From Pedobacter sp. (GTDB lineage: Bacteria > Desulfobacterota > Desulfuromonadia > Desulfuromonadales > Syntrophotaleaceae): a stretch of 64,000 nucleotides of DNA. Location of the stretch: NCBI GenBank assembly GCA_050253415.1, contig JBFWJC010000004.1, positions 1 to 64,000 of the forward strand, read 5' to 3'. Numbering within the stretch: the stretch's first letter is position 1; each line of letters begins with the position of its first letter. The position numbers were made by a program, and so were the translations under genes. Below the pieces are notes generated by a model that saw nothing but the letters and a program-made list of their open reading frames with translations, was not told the origin of the DNA and made no database searches. This document shows positions 128 through 18,403 of the stretch, one piece after another.

Positions 128-529
128 GAAGCTCGCAACCAATCTGATGGCGCAAAACATTTTGGTGCACCGGCAAGCATAAGATCTTTTGAAGATTCCC
201 TCAAAAAAGCTGTAGAAAAAGCCCTAAATCTGAATTATTCGAAAGAGGCCGGAACTACTCCACATGGTTTGCGTCATATGTATGCTTACACCCTAAGGGC
301 TCTTGGAGTTGACGAAAAAGTTATACAGGAGGGACTTCGCCATAGACATCCCTATAGCCAACGTGTTTATGGGAACCCAACTCCATCAGACATCAATGAA
401 CAAATAAAAATGTGTATGCAAAAGAGCCGCGACTCACTCCCGGATGGAGTTCAACTTGAACGCTCACTCAGATGGCTTGAAGACCGCTACCCTGAATTGA
501 AGATTTTAAAAGGAGGGCTATTAAAATAA
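128..529 (+). pseudogene. gmtY: 3' fragment of a GmtY-like tyrosine recombinase, interrupted by the IS
   Basis: Contains GTTPHGLRHMY...LRH...SQRVY (H-x-x-R, H, Y of tyrosine recombinases). The ATG at 122 lies inside the IS end and the frame is closed upstream. The stop overlaps the gmtZ start. Confidence 0.7.
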
Positions 530-3500
530 TGAATAATCATACCTCTAGCGTGACCGATAATTTTGTCGTAAAAAATGGATTTACTTACTGTGATGACTTC
601 CATGCGTGGTGTGTTCTTAGAGGTCTCAACGATGCTGCAATTCAGTCACTTAAAAAAACCTTCCTACTTAAAAAGGATTTAGGCATAAACTATATTGAAC
701 TTTCTAAAAAAGAAAAGTTATTAGAATGCGTAGAATTACTTTTACAAAGCAAGAACTCGAAACTTAGGCTAAATTGCTTCAGAATTTTTGTAAATGATGG
801 TGCTCTTCTTGCCCCCATGGGCCCACCTACTTTAGGACCAAGTCAAACAAACGTCTTGATCCCCAAAGGTGTACTGGAAAAACTCTGTAAAGAAGTCACT
901 AATAATTGTGAAATACATAAAATAGACAGGGATGCGAAATTTGCATTAGGCAAACTATGGACAGGCACAAAAGAAGGTCGAGAAAAGGAAATAAACAAAG
1001 AAAATTTAAAACTGTTTTTGGAACTTTTTTATAGACAAAGCAAAATGACACCTGGGCACTACACTTATCGAGACGCCATTCCCTCAAGACACGCTGCAGC
1101 AATTAAATTTTTTGTTGGACATCTAGATATGCGTGAGCACCTTCAACGACCAAAAAGAAGTTTAACTCCTGAATTTTTTGCACAAGAGCATCCAGAAGGC
1201 CAAAAGTGGATCATGCTTTTTGAAGAATTTTGTCGCGAGCAGGGTTACGGGGCAATCGAAAAAATTGAATTCTCGTTCAACAAATTATGTACCTACCTTC
1301 ACGAAAATCCTGAAGTAGCGTCACCTTCTAACTTCTTTAGTCGGAAAATTCCTCGCAAAAAATTATCAGAATGGCTTAAAGAAACAGGAAACAAAAGCAT
1401 AGACAAAGATATGCGAATGTTAAGGAACTTTTTTAACTGGATTGCATCCTATGACGATACCATTGCTGTCAGAGACCCTATCTCAGACGAACTGATTATC
1501 CGACCGGAATGTTTTATTCCTATAACTGATTCAGAGATTAATGCTGTATCTAATAGCGACTATGAAAGGCCCGCAGAAACGGTTCAACTCGCCCTTCCCC
1601 TCGAATACTTAGAAGAGGTTGAAATAATCCTCACTGAAGACAATATGGCATGGCCAAAAAGTTGTAAAAATGAATGGGTGAATCTTAAGGATCCAGAATC
1701 AGGCGAAATAAAGGAAGTTTTTTGCCCTGTATTGCCAAACCTCATTCGGATAATGATCAAATTACCATTGCGCCACATTCAGCCTAGACGACTTGATTCT
1801 GGAGAAGGAGATGATTACTACTTTGATTTAAAAGAAGGGAAATTTGTCCCAAATCATGGCCCATTTGCAGGTTATTGGAAGAAAAAAGGAGTTAAAAATC
1901 CTGAACGTGGTGTCCTAAGAAAGATTGAGGACAATTGGAATGGAAAATCTATATGTGGCTTTTACATCAACAGCAACAAACTTACGGACCGAAAAACCGG
2001 TTTCGACGAGACGAGTGGATACGTTATTTCCTGGCAGAATGAAGCCGTTATCGAAATCATGCAGGAGATGCGAGCATGGCAAGAATATTGGAATCCCGTT
2101 CAAGCCCCAACAAAATACGTTAACCTGAGGCCAAAAACTTTTCCAAAAATGCAAAAAGATGTAGCAAAACGCCGCCCAGACACTTTTTATCTTTTTCGCT
2201 ATCCTGCTGGCCAAGCGCACGCATTCCCTGACTCCCCTCCATCCGGAGACATGTTAAGATTTTTTTGGTTCAAAGTTCTAGCAGAACTAGAAAGGCGCCT
2301 CAAGGAGAGGGGGGAAGATCCCCCAGAATTAATTTCATCCTGGAACTATTCAACCCCCACGGCAAGTCCTTACACCCTACACGGACTTAGGCACTCAGGT
2401 TTAACGAGAATGGCTGAGGCTGGAGTTCACCCATGGATTTTAAAAAACATCGTAGCCGGACACGCCGATTACGTTATGACGCTTTACTATATCAAGCCAA
2501 GACCTACGCATATCAGCGACTATCTTAATGAAAAATATGAAGAGGCAATGTCAAAAAAACAAAATGACTTTGTACACTTTCTTGGCTCGAAAAATTTAGA
2601 GGAGGTACATAGGAACTCTGTTGCCGCTAGCGGTGATGCATATACTGCTCTTCAGCAAATCAAAAATTCAGTAAAGAATGCGGCAGGAGGAATGTCGAAA
2701 CTGGACCATGGGGTATGTCCAAATGGCCGTACCAGGTGTCATGAAGGGGTATTGCTTGACTCTAAAAAAGGGGTAGGGAAAAAAGGGCTAAAACATACTT
2801 TTGCGCCCACTCCAACCGTAATGGGTGCTCCTGACTGCACCCAATGTCGTTTCTGGATAACGGGTACTCCATTTGCTGACGGACTTCGGATAAAGACAAA
2901 TGAGGTTTCTTTCGCAACACACAAAGCCGCAACTAGATATCGTGACATGCTTGAAGATCTAAAAGATCTGGAGTCTGAAAAGTACCAGTTAGAAAAAGAA
3001 GGTAATTCTGCAAGCTTTAAATTAAATCGTCAAATACAGAGCCTTAAGCAAGAGATAAAAACGGAAAGTGAAATCCTTTCAGCACTGTCCATCAGCCTGA
3101 ACTCTCATGGTGAAAAATGGCAAGAAGTCCGCGCCCTCCTAAGGGTGCAATATGAGGATAACGACCCAGACGGTGCATATCTTCTCTATGATGAAGAACC
3201 TAAGTTCGAATGGGGGCTTCTTCCAAAATTCCAAGCAATCGACGAACTAGCTCATGCAGCAAAATGGTTTCCTTCTGTTCGAAATGAAGACATTTCACGC
3301 GAGCGGAAAGAGAAAATTGTTCAAATGCTTGTGCGCAACGGCAAACCTCCAATCATCGCTATGATGACAGATAAAGAGGCAGAAACTGCCATTAATGCAT
3401 TTACCGCAAGGCTCTATTCGCGGCTAGATAGGCAAGCTGTACGAAAACTTTTTGAAGGCCAAGAAACATTTGAAAGTCTTGGAATGACAAAAGATGTGGA

Positions 3501-3594
3501 ATCTATTATGACAGAAACCCTTTGCAAACAGATTGACTTCACGACTCAAGTCCAGAATTCAATGTATTTAGGATCGGACGAAATTGGCTGCTAG
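529..3594 (+). CDS. gmtZ: Large tyrosine integrase, GmtZ/VPA1269-like
   Basis: 1021 aa; PLRHIQPRRLDSGEGD, YTLHGLRHS...VAGH...MTLYY catalytic motifs; Cys cluster GVCPNG..C..DCTQCRFWITG; C-terminal coiled coil. Confidence 0.8.
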   Translation: MNNHTSSVTDNFVVKNGFTYCDDFHAWCVLRGLNDAAIQSLKKTFLLKKDLGINYIELSKKEKLLECVELLLQSKNSKLRLNCFRIFVNDGALLAPMGPPTLGPSQTNVLIPKGVLEKLCKEVTNNCEIHKIDRDAKFALGKLWTGTKEGREKEINKENLKLFLELFYRQSKMTPGHYTYRDAIPSRHAAAIKFFVGHLDMREHLQRPKRSLTPEFFAQEHPEGQKWIMLFEEFCREQGYGAIEKIEFSFNKLCTYLHENPEVASPSNFFSRKIPRKKLSEWLKETGNKSIDKDMRMLRNFFNWIASYDDTIAVRDPISDELIIRPECFIPITDSEINAVSNSDYERPAETVQLALPLEYLEEVEIILTEDNMAWPKSCKNEWVNLKDPESGEIKEVFCPVLPNLIRIMIKLPLRHIQPRRLDSGEGDDYYFDLKEGKFVPNHGPFAGYWKKKGVKNPERGVLRKIEDNWNGKSICGFYINSNKLTDRKTGFDETSGYVISWQNEAVIEIMQEMRAWQEYWNPVQAPTKYVNLRPKTFPKMQKDVAKRRPDTFYLFRYPAGQAHAFPDSPPSGDMLRFFWFKVLAELERRLKERGEDPPELISSWNYSTPTASPYTLHGLRHSGLTRMAEAGVHPWILKNIVAGHADYVMTLYYIKPRPTHISDYLNEKYEEAMSKKQNDFVHFLGSKNLEEVHRNSVAASGDAYTALQQIKNSVKNAAGGMSKLDHGVCPNGRTRCHEGVLLDSKKGVGKKGLKHTFAPTPTVMGAPDCTQCRFWITGTPFADGLRIKTNEVSFATHKAATRYRDMLEDLKDLESEKYQLEKEGNSASFKLNRQIQSLKQEIKTESEILSALSISLNSHGEKWQEVRALLRVQYEDNDPDGAYLLYDEEPKFEWGLLPKFQAIDELAHAAKWFPSVRNEDISRERKEKIVQMLVRNGKPPIIAMMTDKEAETAINAFTARLYSRLDRQAVRKLFEGQETFESLGMTKDVESIMTETLCKQIDFTTQVQNSMYLGSDEIGC

Positions 3595-3879: not shown

Positions 3880-4602
3880 ATGAGCAAAATGACCATGGAA
3901 CAGGCAAAAATCGCTCGCATTGAATCAATTATGAAAGCAAAAGAAAATATAAAAATACGAAGTGATACCCGCCGCAAAATGGACCTTGTTGACAAAACCT
4001 GTAGCACAATTTTAGAAAGGGGTCGTCCATTCTCTGTTCCGGAAGTAGTTCGCGTTATGAAAGAAAAATTCCCTGGAGACGCCCTTTCTCACTCATCAAT
4101 TTCAAACCAAACCACTTCTGGAGATGCTTATAAAGAAGTAATTTTGGCCTGGAAAAATTATGCTGAAATCACAGGATTTATCAAACCCGTTACAATGCCT
4201 GCTACCGCAGCCGATGACATAACAGATTTGACCCTCAGTCAAATCAAACCTAAAGAGCTACGGCCTACTATCCTGGCCATGCGAACCTCTCTTAGAAATG
4301 CTCGAAAACAGTTACAAATGCATCAGATAGCTACCCCGTCAAGGTTGTTAAACCATGAAGAAACGATCGAAAGTGGCACTATAAAAGAAACTGGTGACAT
4401 TAGATTCAATCAATCAGACAGGCTTTCTCTTACAAATGGAGAAGTCGAAATCCTGGAGGCTTTCATAAATCCCGTAGAACTAGGAGCATTCGGGCTAAAC
4501 TGGAACAAGTTCGGTCAACTAATGAATGATTGTGGTGAAATCATTTCCAGGACTGGACTCAGGGATGTAATCGAAAAAATTCTAAAAATAATTAAACAGT
4601 AA
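3880..4602 (+). CDS. gmtX: GmtX-like accessory protein
   Basis: 240 aa, third gene of the trio. N-terminal pattern (C..I..RG..FSV.EV...SISN..G..YK..I.AW) followed by a helical segment resembles GmtX. Confidence 0.65.
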   Translation: MSKMTMEQAKIARIESIMKAKENIKIRSDTRRKMDLVDKTCSTILERGRPFSVPEVVRVMKEKFPGDALSHSSISNQTTSGDAYKEVILAWKNYAEITGFIKPVTMPATAADDITDLTLSQIKPKELRPTILAMRTSLRNARKQLQMHQIATPSRLLNHEETIESGTIKETGDIRFNQSDRLSLTNGEVEILEAFINPVELGAFGLNWNKFGQLMNDCGEIISRTGLRDVIEKILKIIKQ

Positions 4603-5124
4603 AACGCCGGATGTAGGCGTCACCGGCTCGGGCAAAATTATAGACTGATAAATCACTATTTGTCAGACGCGAAAGGCCCGCCAATTCAAACGGAGGGCCT
4701 TTACTACTTATGAAAATTGAAAAGCCAAAATGTGTGACCGATTTGTGTGTCTTGTGCACAATAAAATGTGCGTAACGCGACCAAGTTCGCTGCAATGCCT
4801 TATATCTCGTGCGCAACCTCCTGCCTCCACCGGGTGGGACAACTCATGCGTAACTCACCGACCTTGCCTGGATGTCGTCCGTTTAAGTGCAAAACTTTGA
4901 CAGGAAGGTATCGGATGATTCGATAAAAGGATCGGCCCTCTGGTTGCCTCTCCCAACGTAACACCCCATGGCACAGAAGATGCGGTCCTTTATGCGCACA
5001 GTCAAAGAGGTGATTCTGACTTAATGTTTGGCCGGATTGGGGCTTGAGGTGGCAGTTCTGACTCTGACTTTGTTCGAATTGACAGTTTTGGGGTGGTGGT
5101 TCTGGCTTTAATATGTCAGAGATT

Positions 5125-5179
5125 TCAACACATAGTTACACCGCATTATGTTTTTTGTGGTGTAACTTCCGCTCGAAAT
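5125..5179. repeat. 55-bp site with GTTACACC-N16-GGTGTAAC palindrome, copy 1
   Basis: 51/55 identical to 17240-17294. Confidence 0.9.
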
Positions 5180-5470
5180 CTTATCTTCGCCACTCAGACC
5201 GAAAGCCTTTATGGTAACCACTATGCTTACAGCGCAAAGATTTATTTGTTGCCAGAAAAAACGCCCTCACATCAGAAGCGATGCGAGGGCGAAAAGATTT
5301 ATCAACAGATTAACGTCTTTCCCTGCATAGCGACCGAGGGTTTTTCTCATTTTGCAGGGGTTGTGAGCCCCCAAGGTTTTACCCCTAATTGAAAGTTTTA
5401 ATTTATCCAGAACAACTTCCAAGATATATTCTAACCATAGGCCAATAGTTTTGGGGAAATCGGGGCGATG

Positions 5471-6540
5471 CAATCGTGGAATCAGACCTAGATAGAGAAC
5501 AATCACCTTCAACACGTGCAACTCGCTGTAATCATAACGCTTCTCGCCAATCGTGGAATTAAACCTAGAGGTCCGTTCCTTCCTATCGATCTGGCGCCCC
5601 CCCCGGCAATCGGGGAATCAAACCTAGATAGCTTGGCAACTGTTGAGATCGCGCAACTCGCCGTAATCATGGCATTTCTCGCCAAACGTGGGATCACTCC
5701 TCAATAGCCCGCGCTTCCGGACAGGATGGCGATCCCTGCGAATCGTGGCATCAGACCTAGATAGCGGGGGAATTGCGCCAGATCATGCAACTCACTGTAA
5801 TCATGTCATTTGTCGGCTATCGTGGAATTACTCCTTAATAGTTCGCTCCGCCGGCCAGCATGGTGATCCCTACCAATCGTGGAACAAGACCTAGATAGCG
5901 AAAAATTTGCTCAAATCATGCAACTAGCCGTAATCATGGCATTTCTCGCCAAACGTGGGATCACTCCTCAATAGCCCGCGCTTCCGGGCAGGATGGCGAT
6001 CCCTGCCAATCGTGGAATCAGACCTAGATAGCGAAGAAGCTGCTCAAATTGTGCAACTCATTGCAATTAATGCGTTTCTCGCCAATCGTGGAATTACTCC
6101 TTAATAAGTCGCTCCGCCGGCCAGCATGGTGATCCCTACCAATCGTGGAACCAGACCTAGATAGCGAAAAATTTGCTCAAATCATGCAACTAGCCGTAAT
6201 CATAACATTTCTCGCCAATCGTGGAGCCACTCCTTAATAGTCCGCACTTCCGACCAAGGTGAAGCTCTCTGCCAATCGTGGAATCAGACCTAGATAGCGA
6301 AGAAGCTGCTCAAATTGTGCAACTCATTGCAATTAATGCGTTTCTCGCCAATCGTGGAATTAAACCTAGGGGTTCGTTCCTTCAGGCCGACCTGGCAGCT
6401 CTCGGCAATCGTGGAATCAGACCTAGGTATCCAGACAGTGCGGATATTCATGATAACTAAACGTAATCATAAGGTTTCCCTCCAATCGTGGAATCACTCC
6501 TAGAGGCTCCGTCGTTCCCCTTGTGGTGACCCTTTTGAAT
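5471..6540. repeat. Hierarchical tandem repeat array: 8 units of ~133 bp, 16 copies of core CAATCGTGGAAT(C/T)A
   Basis: Core starts at 5471, 5548, 5607, 5683, 5740, 5817, 5874, 5950, 6007, 6083, 6140, 6216, 6273, 6349, 6406, 6483. Spacing alternates 76-77 and 57 bp (one 59). Confidence 0.95.
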
Positions 6541-6677
6541 CGCCACTAGTTTCGTAGAAACTACTGAGTATAATACGAAAAATTACAATTACTGTGTCAC
6601 TGTTAATGCGAAGGGCGTTACGGTCGAGGAGCATGATTGCCCCTGCACTGTACAAACATAATTCGTCTCCCGCTGGC

Positions 6678-7052
6678 TTATCGTTGCTGGTCTAGCCGCC
6701 ACCTTCGACTGCAATGACGTATGTAATCATAGTAATTCCGCTCATCGTTTGGAAGGTTGTCAATGCTTTCGATGGTTATAATCTCTGGCCAGTCGAGGCC
6801 ATCATTTAGTTCGCGTGTCATATCAGTATCGGAAACATCGGGCGGCGCGGCGGGCCAGTGTCTGCAGCAATCCAGTAGGTAATCCAGGTGTTTCACGACT
6901 CGACGCATATACAGAATTTCCTCTGAATATATCGTGCGGAGTCCAGCGTCCAGATCATCCCAACTAAGGGCATTTTCCAGGCGGAGCAGAACATCCAGGT
7001 TGTCTTGTCGCTCCGCATCGAAGACATTTTTGATGTGATCTATTTTTTCCAT
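6678..7052 (-). CDS. Hypothetical protein
   Basis: 124-aa ORF with protein-like composition. The start codon coincides with the edge of the long direct repeat, so it may be 5'-truncated. Confidence 0.45.
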   Translation of the reverse strand: MEKIDHIKNVFDAERQDNLDVLLRLENALSWDDLDAGLRTIYSEEILYMRRVVKHLDYLLDCCRHWPAAPPDVSDTDMTRELNDGLDWPEIITIESIDNLPNDERNYYDYIRHCSRRWRLDQQR

Positions 7053-7153
7053 ATTTTAGAAATTTCAATACCTCGATTTGGTCCCATGGCGCAACAAGTT
7101 ATGCGTAACTAAGGTTGCGAAACTTGTCCAGTCAAAACATCTATCGTGATAGC

Positions 7154-7444
7154 TCATAGAGCATCATCAAGGATGCCCTGCCACGGGTCGTCAGACAGGT
7201 TTTTATTTTCCTGCTCCTCTTCAAGCACAGCTATCACGGCCCGCGCTTTTTCTTTGGGAATAAGCATTAGTTCGCTGTTAAGACCTTCAGCAATCAGTTC
7301 CAGAGTACTTAGTTGCGGATTGCCCTTGGCCTCCAAACGTTGGTATTGCTGACGGGATACGCCGATGCGCATCATCATTTCGTGTTGCTTGAAACCCAGC
7401 ATCATTCGTCTTTTTTTGATCTGCTGCAGCAGAGATTCTGTCAT
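7154..7444 (-). CDS. XRE-family HTH protein, HipB-like antitoxin (copy 1)
   Basis: IKKRR..LG.KQ......IGVSRQQYQRLEAKGNPQLSTLELIAEGL HTH; acidic DPWQG tail; AGGAG RBS. Confidence 0.85.
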   Translation of the reverse strand: MTESLLQQIKKRRMMLGFKQHEMMMRIGVSRQQYQRLEAKGNPQLSTLELIAEGLNSELMLIPKEKARAVIAVLEEEQENKNLSDDPWQGILDDAL

Positions 7445-7475
7445 AGAAACTCCTGTATTGCTTTTTGTGCTAAAC

Positions 7476-7549
7476 GAAACACATAAGTTTCTTTATTTTA
7501 AATATGCAACAAATAAGTTGCCTTTTGAGGTTGTCAACATTTGTGTTGC
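7476..7549. promoter_or_regulatory. Three operator-like palindromes upstream of the HTH gene (also present in copy 2)
   Basis: GAAAC-N6-GTTTC (7476), GCAAC-N6-GTTGC (7506), TCAAC-N6-GTTGC (7534), spaced ~28-30 bp. Confidence 0.6.
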
Positions 7550-8274
7550 CTACCATTTTTCAGTGCATTTCTTCTTTTGAGAAGAATCGCAAAAATTCAG
7601 TATTATTTCAATTATTCTCTATAAAATAGGTAGTTTATGCATGAATCCGACCTGTCCTTCCAGGGCGCGAGCATTAATGCGTCACCCAGACGCACTCACT
7701 ATGCAGACAGGTCGGTCCTCCTATTTGCACATTATCGAACGATGGTAGGTCACTAGGATTCCTACATTCCAGACAAATCACCACTCACCAGACGCGAAAG
7801 GCCCGCCAGGAGAATTGGCGGGCCTTTTCCAATATGTCAGGGTTTTTGAGAAAACGCGGAAAAGTAACCAGCGACCAGCAAAAAATCATTCTGAGACAAA
7901 AAGCAAGACGGCCCTACCTGTATTCTCGGTGGGCCGTTTTTTTAAGGCAGCTACTGTCTTGGGATTGAACATATTTGGAACGGTTTGCAGGCGTTGACAT
8001 CCTTTAGCGACATTTGCAGAAAAACCGCGCAGTACAGCGGGTATTTTCTGCACAAGTCCAATGGCTCAGCATTAAATTGTATTGAAATAAGCCTGAGGTG
8101 CGATAAATGTCTTATTAGACACGGATCTCGACAATGCCAAGCCCTTCGTGAGAAAGGCAGACGCAGGCCAACTGCCGAAGAATCCTTCTTTTTAAAGTGA
8201 GAGTCATTTTTTAAACCTAGGAGTGTCTAAGAAACTAGGGGCGATTCACTTGTCCAACAAGAGGGGAAGATGCG

Positions 8275-9465
8275 ATGCGTAAAACTTGCCAGCCGTGTTT
8301 TGTAAGTGCTTCCGGGGAGCATGAGCTACTTAAGCGTGTGGCATTTTCTGACAAGGCAATTGCTGAGAGCTTTCTCCAGAATGCCTTACATCAAGCTCCC
8401 GAGATTCTTCCAGTTGACCAATTCGATGACGCCTTTGGTCCCCTCATTTCGCTTGGGCGCGAAATCGACAATATCGACAACCTGTTTATCTCCCCCAACG
8501 GGCGTTTGACAATTGTTGAGACAAAGTTGTGGCGAAACCCGGAGGCTACTCGGGAGGTCGTGGCACAGATCCTCGATTACGCAACACGAGTTAGCAGTTG
8601 GTCTTACTCAGAACTGGAAAGCAGAGCACGGCAGGCACTCGCTCCGGCGCCAATTGCTGATCAGTCTCTCTTCGAATTTGTGGCGTCATCCGCGGACATC
8701 GATGGCTTGTCGGAGTCGGGCTTTGTTGATGATGTGCAGCGGACACTGCAAGCAGGCAGATTTCTTCTTCTTGTGGTTGGCGATGGCATCCGCGAAAACC
8801 TTGAAGCGATGCTCGCATCCCTACATAAGCACCCGCAGAAGCTGTTCACCTTTGGCCTGCTTGAACTACAGGTATTTCAGGATACTGTTGTCCATGACAG
8901 GCACCTGATAGTCCCACAGGTCATCGCAAACACAACAGAGATCGTCCGTGCTGTTGTCCGCGTTGAAACAACAGGTCAGGCATCGGTTTCCGTCGAGATC
9001 GACGAGCCCGAACCCGTGACTCAGCAGTCCTCTCCTCGCAGGACTCTGTCCAGGGACGAGTTCTTTGGAGCCATTACGGACAACGGCACCAAGGCGCTGT
9101 TTTCTGATCTACTGTCTCTTACTGAAGAAATGGGAGCAGAACCGGGGTGGCGTTCCTCAAGTATCTCGGTCCAACTGCCTGACCCTGCAGGAAGTCGCCA
9201 GCGTCTCACCTTGTTTATTATGACAACAAGAGGTGATATTTATACCGGTTGGCTTGCTGATCAACTTGAGCGCGTGGGAAGACCTTCTCAATTTGCTTCA
9301 GACTACGTAAATGAATTGTGCGCTCTATTCCCCGGTATTCAACAAAACGAGAAGTATCCTGATTCTCTATCGAGGTACATACGTGCGAGCGAGGTGGACG
9401 AAAAACGCGACGACTTTGTAGAAATCGTGAGATCTCTTGTTGATCGAATTTTAGCTAGTGAGTGA
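8275..9465 (+). CDS. PD-(D/E)xK nuclease-domain protein (NucS-like N-terminus); probable gene cassette
   Basis: IDNLFISPNGRLTIVETKLWRNPEATREVVAQILDYA matches the D...ExK...QxxxY nuclease motif. Followed directly by an attC-like site. Confidence 0.75.
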   Translation: MRKTCQPCFVSASGEHELLKRVAFSDKAIAESFLQNALHQAPEILPVDQFDDAFGPLISLGREIDNIDNLFISPNGRLTIVETKLWRNPEATREVVAQILDYATRVSSWSYSELESRARQALAPAPIADQSLFEFVASSADIDGLSESGFVDDVQRTLQAGRFLLLVVGDGIRENLEAMLASLHKHPQKLFTFGLLELQVFQDTVVHDRHLIVPQVIANTTEIVRAVVRVETTGQASVSVEIDEPEPVTQQSSPRRTLSRDEFFGAITDNGTKALFSDLLSLTEEMGAEPGWRSSSISVQLPDPAGSRQRLTLFIMTTRGDIYTGWLADQLERVGRPSQFASDYVNELCALFPGIQQNEKYPDSLSRYIRASEVDEKRDDFVEIVRSLVDRILASE

Positions 9466-9467
9466 TT

Positions 9468-9528
9468 GCAGAACTGGACTAAGTGCAGGTGACGCGGTTA
9501 GCCGCGCCTCTGATTCGCGACGTCAGGT
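9468..9528 (+). other. attC-like site 1 (degenerate)
   Basis: GCAGAAC ... GTGCAG ... CGCGG-TTAG-CCGCG ... CTGATTC-GCGAC-GTCAGGT, starting 2 bp after a stop codon. Confidence 0.55.
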
Positions 9529-9545
9529 TGAAAGAGAGGACTCCC

Positions 9546-10001
9546 ATGCTCGGCCCATCTACTCTTACAATTTTTGAAAAAGCAATTACTGCTCTAAATA
9601 ATGATTTGTCAAAAGAAAAAAGCAAAGTAGGAATTGTTTTTAAAAATATAATTGGCCATCCTGTTAAAGTGTTCGCTTCATTTATTGCAGCACCATTTCT
9701 TGTAATCAAAATAGCCTGTGTTGTAAAAAACCCAATCCGAAGAGCAATTGCAATCATTGGTTTACTGTTATCAATCGTTTTTGCTTACTTGTCGGCGACG
9801 TTTCTTGGTTCAGTTGTAGGGGCAGTTTTTGTTGCCTCAAATATTGGAATCTTGATGGGTATCGGGTTCTTTTTTGGAACAACTCTAAGCGTTTTCTTGA
9901 GTGTTGTTTTCTCAATTGTAGTATTTAACACAGTTTCTTTTGTTTTTTTAAAGATGAGTTCACAAGAAATAATCGATTATTTGCAAGAAATATCAACCTA
10001 G
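9546..10001 (+). CDS. Hypothetical membrane protein; probable gene cassette
   Basis: 151 aa from the ATG after a GAGAGGA RBS; several hydrophobic segments; low GC; stop lies inside the R'' box of the next attC-like site. Confidence 0.75.
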   Translation: MLGPSTLTIFEKAITALNNDLSKEKSKVGIVFKNIIGHPVKVFASFIAAPFLVIKIACVVKNPIRRAIAIIGLLLSIVFAYLSATFLGSVVGAVFVASNIGILMGIGFFFGTTLSVFLSVVFSIVVFNTVSFVFLKMSSQEIIDYLQEIST

Positions 10002-10098
10002 CGAAACACTTCATCGGATGTCCCAATGGTAGTGTTTCCCCAAAATTTCATACCGGATTCTTCAGCACTTCTCCACCGGTGAACTTAATTCGTTGGAC
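9996..10098 (+). other. attC-like site 2
   Basis: ACCTAGC-N5-ACTTCATCGG ... CCGGTGAACTT-N5-GTTGGAC, the R''/L''/L'/R' layout of an attC. Confidence 0.7.
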
Positions 10099-10459
10099 TG
10101 CCTTAATGTCTACCACCCATCAGACATCAAAAGCCCCCGACCACCTGGCCGAGGGCTTTTCTGATAAATGAGGGGTTGTTAGAAACACAGAAAAGTAGCA
10201 ACGATCAGCGAGAAATCAATCTGAGACAATAAACAAGACGGCCCCGCCAAAAATGCTGGCGGGGCCGTTTTTTATGATGGCTACTGTCTTGAAATTGAGG
10301 AGTCGTAATAATTTGATTCTCAGCCCCATCTGATCCCTGAAAACAATGTGAAACAATATGTTGGACACTTCTGCCCTCGTCGGAGTGAAAATGCCAGGAG
10401 TGCCTAGAAAACTACGGGCGATTCAATTTTTCTCTGCCTACCCCCGTTTGATATCTCCA

Positions 10460-10762
10460 CTACGATTCGACGATTCCGATTACTACCTTGAAGCCACCGG
10501 TCGCAAATTTTGGAAGATCGGCAATTGTTGCTTGCCCTTCGGCAGATCCACGTGCCTGCTCCATTTGAGCCTGAGATGTAAAATAGAGCTCGGCCATGCG
10601 ATAGAAGTCTGGTCTTCTTCCGTCCGCCCCGGCTACAAATTTGGTAAGCTCGATGCGTGCCACCTTTTTAATCTGGGATACAAGAGGCAAGTGGTTGTTT
10701 TCGTAATGCTTTTCGAACGCATAAAAACTCATCGGATGGCCATATAGTACGGTGATTTTCAT
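10460..10762 (-). CDS. EthD-family reductase
   Basis: KITVLYGHP...FEKHYENNHLPLV...MAELYF...DLPKFA is the EthD pattern. Confidence 0.85.
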   Translation of the reverse strand: MKITVLYGHPMSFYAFEKHYENNHLPLVSQIKKVARIELTKFVAGADGRRPDFYRMAELYFTSQAQMEQARGSAEGQATIADLPKFATGGFKVVIGIVES

Positions 10763-11072
10763 CATGCGGGCCTCTTTCATATGTATAATTGCCCAGCAAC
10801 AGCCGAATTAGACCACCAGCCATTAGGGGCGAACAATTGCTCTGCACCATCCGTTTGTGGCTTAGCGCGGCGAAGGGACAAACCGCCGCGCAATGCCCGC
10901 CAGGCTATACATCCTTTTTCGATCTTCTTAATTGTCTCGGGCAATCCTCCAGCGGCAACAATAATCCCGGCCGGACAGGCCCTACACAGAGACCACAGCG
11001 CGCGCTCTCTTTTTCGTTTATGGAAATTAGTCCCATGCTCTTTTCCATAAAACCAAGCCTATCAGTACCATG

Positions 11073-12167
11073 TTATTTTATGACGCATTTTACTCCTTCA
11101 CCTTTTAGTCCCGGGCCAAAGCATCCGTCACAATATATGCAGGTTGCTGGCTTTGTGTCCCCGGACTTCCAGCGTTCAATCAAATTTGGTTCGCGAATAA
11201 GAGGACGACAAATGGATATATAGTCAGCCACCCCGTCGTTTATCAGGTTTTCGGCTACTTCCAGGGAACGAATGCCACCAACCAGCAAGAGAGGTACGCC
11301 AATTTTCCCTTTATAGCGAATAGCTGCTTCTTTGTAATACACCTCTTTATCTTGTGAATCTAATGCGCCAATCCTGCAGCTGGAGTATGCGCCTGATGCA
11401 TATATTGTCCCGCCGCTCATTTCGATGGCGTCAACCCCGGCCTTTTCCAACATTGCGCAGACCTGGAGCATCTCATCCACAACGAGACCGTCTTTCACGA
11501 AATCCTCCGAATTGATCTTCACGAGCAGCAGAAACTCTTCCCCGACCTCGTTTCTGACCGCACGCACCGCCTCCAGAATAATTCGCGCTCGATTTTCTAT
11601 GCTTCCACCGTAATTGTCCGTTCGTTTGTTGAAAAACGGCGAAAGAAATTGGCTCATCAGATAACCATGGGCCGCATGCAGTTGCACTCCGTCATAACCG
11701 GCCTTCTTCGCCCGTCCCGCCGCCTTGGCGAAAGACTCCACGACCTGCTTGATCTCGGCCAATGTTATTTCCCGACATTCGGGAAAGTCTGGGGATTTGT
11801 TCGTGGAAGGCCCCAATACGTCGCTGCCGGTCAGGGCCTGAGGAGCGTAACAGCCGCCGTGGGCCAATTGCACGACAACTTTGCTACCGGTCCCATGAAT
11901 CGCGACCGCCATTTCCGCTAGCCCGGGGATGAATTCGTCTCCGTAAATGGCTAATTGAGAGGGGGCTGCCTTTCCTTCAGGACTCACGAAAGCCATGCCC
12001 GTGACGATCAGTCCCACGCCGCCACGGGCTCGCTCCACCAGAAACTCCCTGTTCTTTGCGGTGCAGAAACCTTTGTCATCGGCGAGTCCGTCCCATGTTG
12101 CCGAGTAGACATACTTGTTTTTCAGGGAAAGGCCTTTGAGTTGGGTCTTTTCAAACGATTTCAGCAT
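11073..12167 (-). CDS. NADH:flavin oxidoreductase (Old Yellow Enzyme family)
   Basis: ERARGGVGLIVTG, QLAHGG, GYDGVQLHAAHGYLMSQFLSP..NKRTD.YGGS.ENR; start moved to the ATG after the AGGAG RBS. Confidence 0.93.
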   Translation of the reverse strand: MLKSFEKTQLKGLSLKNKYVYSATWDGLADDKGFCTAKNREFLVERARGGVGLIVTGMAFVSPEGKAAPSQLAIYGDEFIPGLAEMAVAIHGTGSKVVVQLAHGGCYAPQALTGSDVLGPSTNKSPDFPECREITLAEIKQVVESFAKAAGRAKKAGYDGVQLHAAHGYLMSQFLSPFFNKRTDNYGGSIENRARIILEAVRAVRNEVGEEFLLLVKINSEDFVKDGLVVDEMLQVCAMLEKAGVDAIEMSGGTIYASGAYSSCRIGALDSQDKEVYYKEAAIRYKGKIGVPLLLVGGIRSLEVAENLINDGVADYISICRPLIREPNLIERWKSGDTKPATCIYCDGCFGPGLKGEGVKCVIK

Positions 12168-15874: not shown

Positions 15875-16671
15875 CATATTGCAGAAATTTCAATACCTCG
15901 ATTTGGTCCCATGGCGCAACAAGTTATGCGTAACTAAGGTTGCGAAACTTGTCCAGTCAAAACATCTATCGTGATAGCTCATAGAGCATCATCAAGGATG
16001 CCCTGCCACGGGTCGTCAGAAAGGTTTTTATTTTCCTGTTCCCCTTCAAGCACAGCTATCACTGCCCGCGCTTTTTCTTTGGGAATAAGCATTAGTTCGC
16101 TGTTAAGGCCTTCAGCAATCAGTTCCAGAGTACTTAGTTGCGGATTGCCCTTGGCCTCCAAACGTTGGTATTGCTGACGGGATACGCCGATGCGCATCAT
16201 CATGTCGTGTTGCTTGAAACCCAGCATCAATCGTCTTTTTTTGATCTGCTGCAGCAGAGATTCTGTCATAGAAACTCCTGTATTGCTTTTTGTGCTAACA
16301 GAAACACATAAGTTTCTTTATTTCAAATATGCAACAAATAAGTTGCCTTTTAAGGTTGGCAACATTTGTGTTGCCTATCCATTTTTCAGTGCATTTCTTC
16401 TTTTGAGAAGAATCGCAAAAATTCATTATTATTTCAATTATTTTGAATAAAATAGGGAGTTTATACATGAATCCGACCTGTCCTTCCAGGGCGCGAGCAT
16501 TAATGCGTCACCCAGACGCACTCACTATGCAGACAGGTCGGTCCTCCTGTTTGCACATTATCGAACGATGGTAGGTCACTAGGCTTCCTACATTCCAGAC
16601 AAATCACCACTCACCAGACGCGAAAGGCCCGCCAGGAGAATTGGCGGGACTTTTCCAATATATCAGGGTTT
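15875..16671. repeat. ~0.8-kb direct repeat, copy 2
   Basis: Near-identical to 7050-7845. Confidence 0.95.
15979..16269 (-). CDS. XRE-family HTH protein, HipB-like antitoxin (copy 2)
   Basis: 3 amino-acid differences from copy 1 over 96 aa. Confidence 0.85.
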   Translation of the reverse strand: MTESLLQQIKKRRLMLGFKQHDMMMRIGVSRQQYQRLEAKGNPQLSTLELIAEGLNSELMLIPKEKARAVIAVLEGEQENKNLSDDPWQGILDDAL

Positions 16672-18316: not shown

Positions 18317-18403
18317 TGGTGCGCGAGGCGGGACTTGAACCCGCACGGCTAAAAGCCGCAAGATTTTAAGTCTTGTGTGTCTGCCGAATTCCACCACTCG
18401 CGC
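18317..18403 (-). tRNA. tRNA-Leu(TAA)
   Basis: GCGCGAG acceptor stem, D-loop TGGTGGAATTCGGCAGACAC, anticodon arm CAAGA-CTTAAAA-TCTTG, long variable arm, GGTTCAAGTCC, encoded CCA. Confidence 0.96.

Follow-up and report, generated by a model that had tools for sequence, protein, structure and literature searches.

A portable non-coding repeat block in a GMT-type island, tentatively read as a row of protein-binding sites

Introduction

Plasmid iteron arrays also occur outside the origin, as incompatibility or copy-control loci such as incA of P1, with a spacing of ~22 bp. Tandem direct repeats likewise make up several plasmid centromeres, among them sopC of F, parC of R1 and stbS of R388, the last of which is bound by StbA. 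The integrative element SGI1 carries functional copies of the parS of its helper plasmid, which stabilise SGI1 and destabilise the plasmid, according to the accessible text of the report (PMC10954446).

Gamma-Mobile-Trio (GMT) islands have a gmtY-gmtZ-gmtX trio at their 5' border and cargo downstream. The part of the preprint that was available to us (10.1101/2023.03.28.534373) describes short inverted repeats at the insertion sites and mentions no repeat array.

Here we analyse a 64-kb stretch of DNA, referred to as the window, from a genome that we call G000. The window resembles GMT islands in the order of trio and cargo; it differs from them in its host, which is not a gammaproteobacterium, and a near-identical MAG record is labelled Desulfobacteraceae. 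Between the trio and the cargo lies a long array of direct repeats.

Results

A GMT trio precedes the array

By NCBIfam profiles, the three predicted genes upstream of the array constitute a GMT system, as a first-pass annotation of the sequence had recognized. The tyrosine recombinase GmtY is represented by a C-terminal fragment at positions 122-529 of the plus strand (NCBIfam recomb_GmtY, E 2.5e-24; Pfam Phage_integrase). The fragment covers profile positions 360-440 of 441 and scores no more than 86 bits, since the start of the contig, which lies inside a 127-bp repeat, truncates the gene. Positions 1-127 of the window are identical to C1:1-127 and to the end of contig C8, i.e. the repeat is common to two other contig ends; from its peptide pattern, it may be the start of an IS3-type transposase gene. 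The GmtZ-like integrase of the VPA1269 family (529-3594, plus strand, 1021 aa) matches Pfam Integrase_2 (2.9e-42) and NCBIfam integrase_GmtZ (1.6e-116), the latter being its best match, with a score of 390 bits that lies below the curated cut-off of 600 bits. GmtX (3880-4602, plus strand, 240 aa) scores 58.4 bits with its NCBIfam model, above the cut-off of 40 bits.

A tblastn search with GmtZ retrieved 144 plasmid records; plasmid homologues are annotated as VPA1269 family and have gmtY and gmtX as neighbours. Among 401 genomes (a sample of 400 from the phylum, plus G000), the protein found only itself at E 1e-20. We compared six other GMT loci, from Burkholderia, Bosea, Polaromonas, Halomonas, Pseudomonas and Photobacterium. 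Both gmtY and gmtX are annotated beside gmtZ in three of the six (Polaromonas, Halomonas and Pseudomonas), and gmtX alone in Bosea. Within 6-7 kb, TRF detected a tandem array of period >18 bp in none of these loci; the window, run as a control with identical settings, scored 813-1115. The array is not GMT-specific.

The cargo extends up to a tRNA at 18.3 kb (18320-18403), the only Rfam match in the window at gathering thresholds, and includes HTH_3 genes, an Xre/ParS-type antitoxin, an old-yellow-enzyme-type reductase, a TetR regulator and an epimerase. A 96-aa HTH_3 protein (Pfam), encoded on the minus strand, sits in a 0.8-kb cargo block at 7058-7858; copies of this block, 91% identical, occur at 15879-16667 of the window and at 22449-21641 of contig C2.

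Anatomy of the array

The array spans positions 5471-6540 of the plus strand and consists of eight units of 133-136 bp, each with an A core and a B core. A pattern search of the window returned 16 copies of the core CAATCGTGGAAT (at most two mismatches) at 5471-6494, all on the plus strand. Over the whole 64 kb there are 20 matches against 6.9 expected, a number that none of 100 shuffles reached. The distance from core to core alternates between 76 or 77 and 57 bp, as first described, with 59 bp occurring once. TRF gave periods of 133 bp (5.7 copies, 76% match), 266 bp (90% match) and 399 bp, and the autocorrelation of the array is strongest at lags of 133 (z 18.8) and 266 (z 17.3), followed by 57 (z 10.9) and 76 (z 9.4). 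The 133/266-bp hierarchy that the first-pass annotation had put forward is solid. A 19-bp monomer layer beneath it is real and faint, at trace level: lag 19 has a z of only 5.5 in the window array and 3.5 in the second array described below, so that the earlier figure of ~56 monomers overstates it. Decayed 19-mers, TAATCATGGCATTTCTCGC, are indeed found at 5664 and 5931.

Each unit opens at offset 0 with the A core, CAATCGTGGAATCAGACCTAG(A/G)TA. Next come ~25 poorly conserved nucleotides on its 3' side, a conserved block AACTnnnnGTAATCATGGCnTTTCTCGC (GTAATCATGGC...) with a decayed core inside, the B core CAATCGTGGAATyAnnCCT, and finally a GC-rich, semi-variable stretch of ~36 nt. Core-like sites lie at offsets 0 (A), 57 (decayed) and 76 (B) of each unit, which leaves gaps of 57, 19 and 57 bp. 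Such gaps are out of helical phase and differ from the ~22-bp spacing of classical iterons; both points speak against taking the cores for binding sites.

We pooled the units of the window array and of the array on contig C2 into one alignment of 16 units. Mean pairwise identity is 0.92 in the A core, 0.77 in the B core and 0.74 in the middle block, and 0.45 and 0.54 in the two variable spacers; of 10000 random window pairs, only 71 are as alike as the cores. In the orthologous pair C4u8/C2u8, where C4 stands for the window array, the cores agree at 24/24 and 20/21 positions, versus 13/24 in the variable part.

The two halves of the units reassort. Identical A-halves are found at 6007 and 6273 (units 5 and 7) and A-halves with 96% identity at 5874 and 6140 (units 4 and 6); the B-halves at 5683 and 5950 (units 2 and 4) are 97% identical, and those at 5817 and 6083 (units 3 and 5) 94%. 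This reassortment of A- and B-halves indicates that exchange occurs at the cores. All four pairings had been noticed before; a fifth, between the halves at 5548 and 6349, amounts to moderate likeness only, with 66% identity outside the core. Intra-array recombination confined to the cores could also produce their conservation, a second point against a binding-site reading.

The array is non-coding and no protein repeat, as had been concluded from its letters. The ORF search of the window found none longer than 84 aa across it, and no ORF is conserved across units, because the frame is lost where the spacing changes between 76 and 77 bp. A set of small peptide genes is barely credible. In its favour are that some units, on the plus strand, read IVE(S/Q)DLDSE..AQI.QL..I.AFLA.RGITP and then a stop, and that two unit subtypes differ, by eye, partly by synonymous changes in that frame. 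However, only four of the eight window units keep this frame intact; the 77-bp spacing disrupts it in the remaining ones and in the majority of C2 units. One and the same core falls into two reading frames, there is no conserved start codon or ribosome-binding site, and the 84-aa ORF, on the minus strand, has no Pfam match.

A portable block with a second copy on contig C2

A blastn search of its own genome with the 266-bp unit revealed a second array in G000, on contig C2. The match comprises leader, eight units and trailer, from 5352 to 6667 of the window and from 24884 to 23571 of C2, at 78% identity and with sharp borders on both sides. The leader (5352-5470, plus strand, 119 bp) consists of a GC hairpin, an AT-rich stretch (5383-5445, GC 0.32 versus 0.46 for the window) and two decayed cores. 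It is ~96% identical to C2 24884-24766, and its left border lies sharply at TTGCAG. The trailer (6541-6667, plus strand) is ~85% identical to C2 23723-23571 and has a sharp right border; its 3' 82 nt recur at C7:1572-1653, and a TATAAT-like hexamer lies inside. Just outside the block common to C2, a consensus scan found a terminator-like hairpin on the minus strand (5262-5291, 13 pairs and a T run). The unit count is eight in both arrays, the first two and the last units are orthologous, and both retain the two core classes.

Upstream of the C2 array we found three tyrosine recombinases (433, 647 and 603 aa), a DUF6262 protein, a RecD2-family helicase and an orphan ORF of 159 aa, which has no homologue besides itself and whose single-sequence model contains two or three long helices (pLDDT 67). 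As a link to CRISPR the helicase was rejected: it scores 200 bits with the PADLOC model 'typeIV_RecD' and better, 366 bits, with a generic RecD2 model. The C2 element splits the gene of a nicotinate phosphoribosyltransferase (pncB), whose halves lie at C2:~33372 and C1:~385. The same block thus stands behind unrelated sets of recombinases, and the array is part of a portable block and of neither recombination machine. Leader, array and trailer are this portable block.

The suggestion of the first-pass annotation that the array serves the adjacent recombinases is not supported: the C2 copy is behind an unrelated set, none of the six other GMT loci has an array, and relatives free of recombinases exist on contig C5 and on a plasmid-like contig (see below). 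A homologous array unlinked to GMT, which that annotation had named among the findings that would refute its reading, thus exists on C2.

That the cores are sites of recombination, i.e. crossover or arm sites of a tyrosine recombinase, integration scars or a platform for cassette capture where the cargo begins, appears very unlikely on the same grounds, identical cores being found beside two unrelated recombinase sets. The position of the arrays does suit the idea, since both full ones lie just 3' of tyrosine-recombinase operons, where core genes give way to cargo. So do the sharp borders of the cargo blocks in these elements, at a common TTGCAG, together with a 127-bp segment ending in TTGCAG that precedes two blocks and lies in inverted orientation close to the right-hand end of the C2 element, and the reassortment of halves at the cores. 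Yet the crossover of the C2 element, as mapped in pncB, is CTCAT, which is unlike the core; nothing is inserted between units; no recombinase is near the C5 arrays or the plasmid-like cluster; the six other GMT loci have no arrays; and an attC-like inverted repeat is lacking.

The block is rare. Scanning one genome per species with the 21-mer gave a single match, in a MAG whose copy of the C2 array is near-identical. Among relatives, blastn found the array in 1 of 41, and against plasmids and phages it gave no match. In contigs from sequencing runs, the C2-type array was present in four studies and the C4 type, that of the window, in one run. Because there are only two full arrays, both in one genome lineage, comparative power is low.

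Relatives of the core motif

The 20-mer CAATCGTGGAATCAGACCTA also occurs on G103:C136, a plasmid-like contig of 15.7 kb binned to a genome of the same order. This contig encodes a MobA/MobL relaxase, an actin-like ParM-type partition ATPase, ParA, SSB, RecJ and TnpB; a scan of 19 ORFs found no integrase. The 15-mer CGTGGAATCAGACCT is repeated on it eight times in direct orientation, once with a mismatch, and the spacing of the copies ranges from 22 to 75 bp. The 20-mer is exact in three of the eight and one base off in two more, and most copies extend to the full CAATCGTGGAATCAGACCT(A/G)AC. The layout of the cluster is iteron-like. Motif clusters are present in 2 of 233 genomes of the order, G000 and G103, and a reversed control pattern gave at most one match per genome.

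Sister motif arrays (CCAATCGGGGAGTCAGAACTACCACC; CCAATCGGGGAGTCAGAACTA-type sites) with a period of 42-45 bp occur in G000 at C5:2400-3300, flanking an AT-rich palindromic centre, and at C5:22100-23150. Both sit among genes without a recombinase, and a search of 16 other genomes of the family did not find them. A region of the window resembling them (5009-5107, minus strand) matches C5:3112-3209 in inverted orientation, with 77% identity over 100 bp by blastn. It holds three GRAGTCAGAACYACCAC-type copies of the motif by eye, of which a strict pattern (at most three mismatches) catches one, at 5065.

Metagenomes, scanned for pairs of cores at a distance of 44-68 bp, gave 62 loci, mostly unrelated CRISPR arrays or short tandem repeats. 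When the block was compared with all 62 by blastn, it matched only L060, the end of G103:C136, over 23 nt. The long loci are genuine type I CRISPR arrays, one of which (L050) has Cas3, Cas4, Cas1 and Cas2 upstream. Their 31-nt repeat has CCAATCGTGGAAT and AATCAGACC in common with the cores, the anchored identity being at most 20/31, and is absent from the 233 genomes of the order. The likeness is partial and is probably of no importance.

These distributions bear on a serious rival, which we nevertheless hold to be unlikely: a neutral or selfish minisatellite, in which a two-core unit of 133 bp was amplified by unequal crossing-over, is kept uniform by core-limited exchange and rides along as functionless cargo. 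Rarity and restriction to one genome lineage speak for it (blastn found the array in 1 of 41 relatives and in no plasmid or phage, and the pattern search saw clusters in 2 of 233 genomes), no partner protein was found, and since halves reassort, exchange at the cores alone could keep these uniform. On the other side, both arrays have kept eight units, leader, trailer and two core classes at an overall identity of 78%, and orthologous end units have perfect cores while their spacers have diverged by ~50%. The C2-type array recurs in contigs from the four studies, and an unrelated plasmid-like replicon has a cluster of the same 20-mer. The first-pass annotation had tied GMT-unlinked arrays to a neutral minisatellite; that the cores are far more conserved than the spacers argues against this.

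Comparison with known feature classes

The earlier view that the array fits neither CRISPR nor integron nor REP architecture is borne out by the present tests. It recalls CRISPR in its leader, its conserved repeats with more variable inserts and its trailer, in a 13-mer in common with the type I repeat, and in a mean core spacing of 66.5 bp, the period of the true type I arrays that have CCAATCGTGGAAT and AATCAGACC in their repeat. Unlike spacers, which are unique, its inserts come in two alternating lengths and are homologous to each other, though diverged; no cas genes accompany it, and identity with the type I repeat stays at or below 20/31. G000 has no Cas1, and a scan for at least three exact 20-mers at 40-160 bp found no CRISPR array in this genome, only the present repeat arrays and a three-copy direct repeat at C1:913763.

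Not a single inverted repeat was found in 5300-6700. This leaves no palindromic units for REP/BIME, which we rejected, as we did an integron cassette array, for which, in addition, the integron-integrase model gave the GmtY fragment 18.6 bits against a cut-off of 265 bits.

The CRISPR-like layout, together with a strong terminator-like hairpin on the minus strand 60 bp beyond the leader, would also suit a transcribed ncRNA array, in which cleavage of a leader-driven transcript at the cores yields RNAs of 57, 76 or 133 nt, either CRISPR-like, antitoxin-like or decoys for a Cas6-type enzyme. We consider this distinctly unlikely. The RNAalifold consensus of the 16 aligned units, computed on the plus strand alone, has -4 kcal/mol and one covarying pair, hence no conserved fold, and a consensus scan found no promoter-like site in leader or trailer. 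Read as guides, the variable segments, which are homologous inserts, match their own genome over 14-18 nt only, with a single match of 18 nt at C1:226898 (E 0.001). The limited likeness to the type I repeat, the absence of that repeat from the order, and a genome with neither Cas1 nor a CRISPR array point the same way. The gene downstream of the array is a minus-strand ORF of 124 aa in the window and a 236-aa Xre/ParS-type antitoxin-like gene on C2; as the two differ, there is no fixed toxin partner. A type III toxin-antitoxin RNA array was rejected on these genes and on its units of 133 bp.

With iteron arrays the locus shares many direct, non-palindromic sites of ~19-21 bp, without a gene of their own, and the clustering of its 20-mer at 22-75 bp on the plasmid-like contig. 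The repeats are in the range of 17-22 bp known for iteron origins, all A and B cores, of ~21 bp, being direct. There is, however, no adjacent rep gene, and no ORF beside the arrays is common to both loci; a search of G000 found no Rep_3 initiator. The sites are also arranged differently, with gaps of 57, 19 and 57 bp in a unit of 133 bp, and they belong to chromosomal integrative elements.

Like the centromeres sopC, parC and stbS, the array is a long tandem row that, by analogy, could act as a loading platform, and here a GmtX gene lies 0.75 kb upstream. Unlike at those centromeres, no partition ATPase is adjacent, the C2 copy has no GmtX, and the likeness of GmtX to StbA was not reproduced. 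Neither ParA nor ParM adjoins either array.

Search for a partner protein

No binding partner was found, and no flanking ORF is common to the window and C2 loci. The exception among shared genes is the 96-aa HTH_3 gene, which belongs to a separate block 0.5-1.3 kb from the arrays; this block also occurs array-free, at 15879-16667 of the window. GmtX is missing from the C2 locus. None of the proteins of the plasmid-like contig has a homologue near the arrays, and the 218-aa ORF beside the plasmid cluster has three homologues, all unnamed, and no similarity to GmtX or to the 236-aa protein of C2.

GmtX is reported to resemble the DNA-binding domain of StbA in the available text of the preprint (10.1101/2023.03.28.534373). 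Our AF2 model of GmtX has a confident, helical N-terminal part of 100 aa. Against the PDB, its sequence profile found nothing below E 0.1 and Foldseek nothing at E <=0.001; the best VIA-align match, with a Z of 6.3, is a helical bundle, and StbA is not among the matches. With no StbA match for the model, this likeness rests on the preprint and is not reproduced for the present GmtX.

G000 encodes a single DnaA and a single ParB. One DnaA-box-like site (8/9) is at 5403, in the AT-rich stretch of the leader. Such sites are not enriched in the window, which has 21 of them for an expectation of 15, a count that 9 of 100 shuffles reached. The absence of a found partner, of Rep_3 and of DnaA-box enrichment, with one ParB only in the genome, counts against binding sites.

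Discussion

The first-pass annotation had offered three functions for the array, namely a multi-site protein-binding platform, a stack of recombination scars and a processed ncRNA array; the protein-binding platform fits best. We tentatively regard the array as a portable cis-acting row of putative protein-binding sites in the manner of iterons or a centromere; the protein that would bind it has no gene next to the array and is maybe that of a plasmid.

The array forms the middle of a self-contained, non-coding block of 1.3 kb that, in this reading, is moved between integrative elements as cargo. This block would act at the level of DNA, as a row of sites for one sequence-specific DNA-binding protein. 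With three direct, non-palindromic sites per unit (A at 0, the decayed core at 57, B at 76), the ~24 sites could load many copies of the partner. The latter may be supplied by the host, by the element itself (GmtX, reported as StbA-like) or by a plasmid for which the 20-mer also serves as a site; a partner of plasmid origin would be hijacked or titrated by the array, as by the parS copies of SGI1. The sequences show the anatomy and portability of the block, the conservation of its cores, the occurrence of the motif on a plasmid-like contig and the lack of signals of coding or RNA folding; both the binding of a protein to the cores and the effect of such binding are what we infer here.

The parallel with SGI1 is that of an integrative element carrying the cis sites of a plasmid without the gene of the cognate protein, as far as the accessible text on SGI1 goes (PMC10954446). 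The two differ in that the text describes two palindromic parS in 31-bp repeats of SGI1, while the present ~24 sites are asymmetric and known from sequence alone. The precedent, the cluster of the identical site on a plasmid-like contig and the absence of a cognate protein gene beside the arrays make a more specific version of the putative protein-binding row possible, doubtful as we hold it to be. The block would then be a cis-site mimic, ~24 copies of an iteron-like site of a mobilizable plasmid family in two integrative elements that are unrelated to each other and of which one is a GMT island. By soaking up or borrowing the site-specific protein of the plasmid, it might expel competing plasmids, a defence by way of incompatibility, or let the excised island ride on plasmid maintenance.

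If the array were neutral, it would still be a clear case of a bacterial minisatellite of higher order in which exchange is confined to the cores. GMT islands and others driven by recombinases are known for the protein-coding genes of defence and attack that they carry. If the protein-binding reading is true, a portable non-coding cargo that passes between unrelated islands and has a site in common with a plasmid would add a DNA-only layer to the conflicts of mobile elements. The parS mimicry of SGI1 is one documented case of such mimicry at the level of DNA, as the available text of its report has it (PMC10954446). Should GmtX or a host factor bind the array, it would offer a first handle on how such islands are held or partitioned after excision.

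Sequences resembling the array core

Arrays of GRAGTCAGAACYACCAC with a period of 42-45 bp were found at two places on contig C5 of the Pedobacter sp. genome (2400-3300 and 22100-23150; loci L105 and L106) and in the window itself at 5009-5107. The GRAGTCAGAACYACCAC core is clearly related to the A core, one of the two core classes of the sixteen-core array at window 5471-6540. Within these arrays, copies of GRAGTCAGAACYACCAC are interspersed with a second motif, TACGCATAAGTTGTCGCG. The array at C5:2400-3300 lies on either side of a palindromic, AT-rich centre and in this respect looks like an origin, yet its neighbourhood contains no rep, par or recombinase genes.

Both halves of the A core, CCAATCGTGGAAT and AATCAGACC, also occur, in swapped order, within a 31-nt CRISPR repeat. 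This repeat belongs to true type I CRISPR arrays at metagenome loci obtained by scanning for two cores 44-68 bp apart: at L050 the array spans 5988-11250, with Cas3, Cas4, Cas1 and Cas2 upstream, and such arrays are likewise present at L068, L048, L042, L044, L041, L053 and others. Overall, the array core and the CRISPR repeat share no more than 20/31 identical positions, and a search of 233 genomes of the order did not find this repeat.

Surroundings of the array

The first 127 nt of the window form a repeat that occupies three contig ends: the same sequence makes up C1:1-127 and, as its reverse complement, the end of contig C8, without a mismatch. Its minus strand reads like the beginning of a transposase gene of an IS, and in the assembly gmtY is cut short by it. 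Further on, window 4691-5316 is covered ~750-850x in one oil-metagenome run, and the contigs responsible run on into sequence unrelated to the window; this motif-rich stretch, which precedes the array, is therefore also present in another, abundant replicon.

The final 82 nt of the conserved array trailer (window 6586-6667) recur at C7:1572-1653, upstream of a 112-aa ORF, possibly as a promoter or 5' UTR element common to the two loci. A 0.8-kb block encoding a 96-aa HTH_3 protein, weakly matching RstR and 'mobile mystery protein A', exists in three copies of ~91% identity (window 7058-7858, window 15879-16667 and C2 22449-21641), two of them shortly downstream of an array. At window 8275-9465, a 396-aa ORF weakly matches the PADLOC candidate defence family PDC-S11 (E 2.4e-8); a Pfam search with it returned no match.

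Insertion site and cargo borders of the C2 element

The C2 element, with its three tyrosine recombinases, DUF6262 and RecD2, interrupts a nicotinate phosphoribosyltransferase gene. Its junctions, at ~18372 of the C2 locus extract L011 (C2:33372) and at C1:385, split the target between ...GGCTCAT and GAATGG..., and CTCAT is found at both.

A ~127-bp segment ending ...TGGCAATGTCCTGGGTTGCAGG (L011 9885-10011 and 7455-7581, equal to C2 25011-24885 and 22581-22455; C1:153-281) immediately precedes each of two successive cargo blocks of this element, and occurs inverted near its right end. Of five junctions compared, four have the left border of the cargo block at TTGCAG; in the copy at window 7058, the block begins slightly inside this motif. 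Together, these segments and borders hint at a site-specific exchange of cargo blocks.
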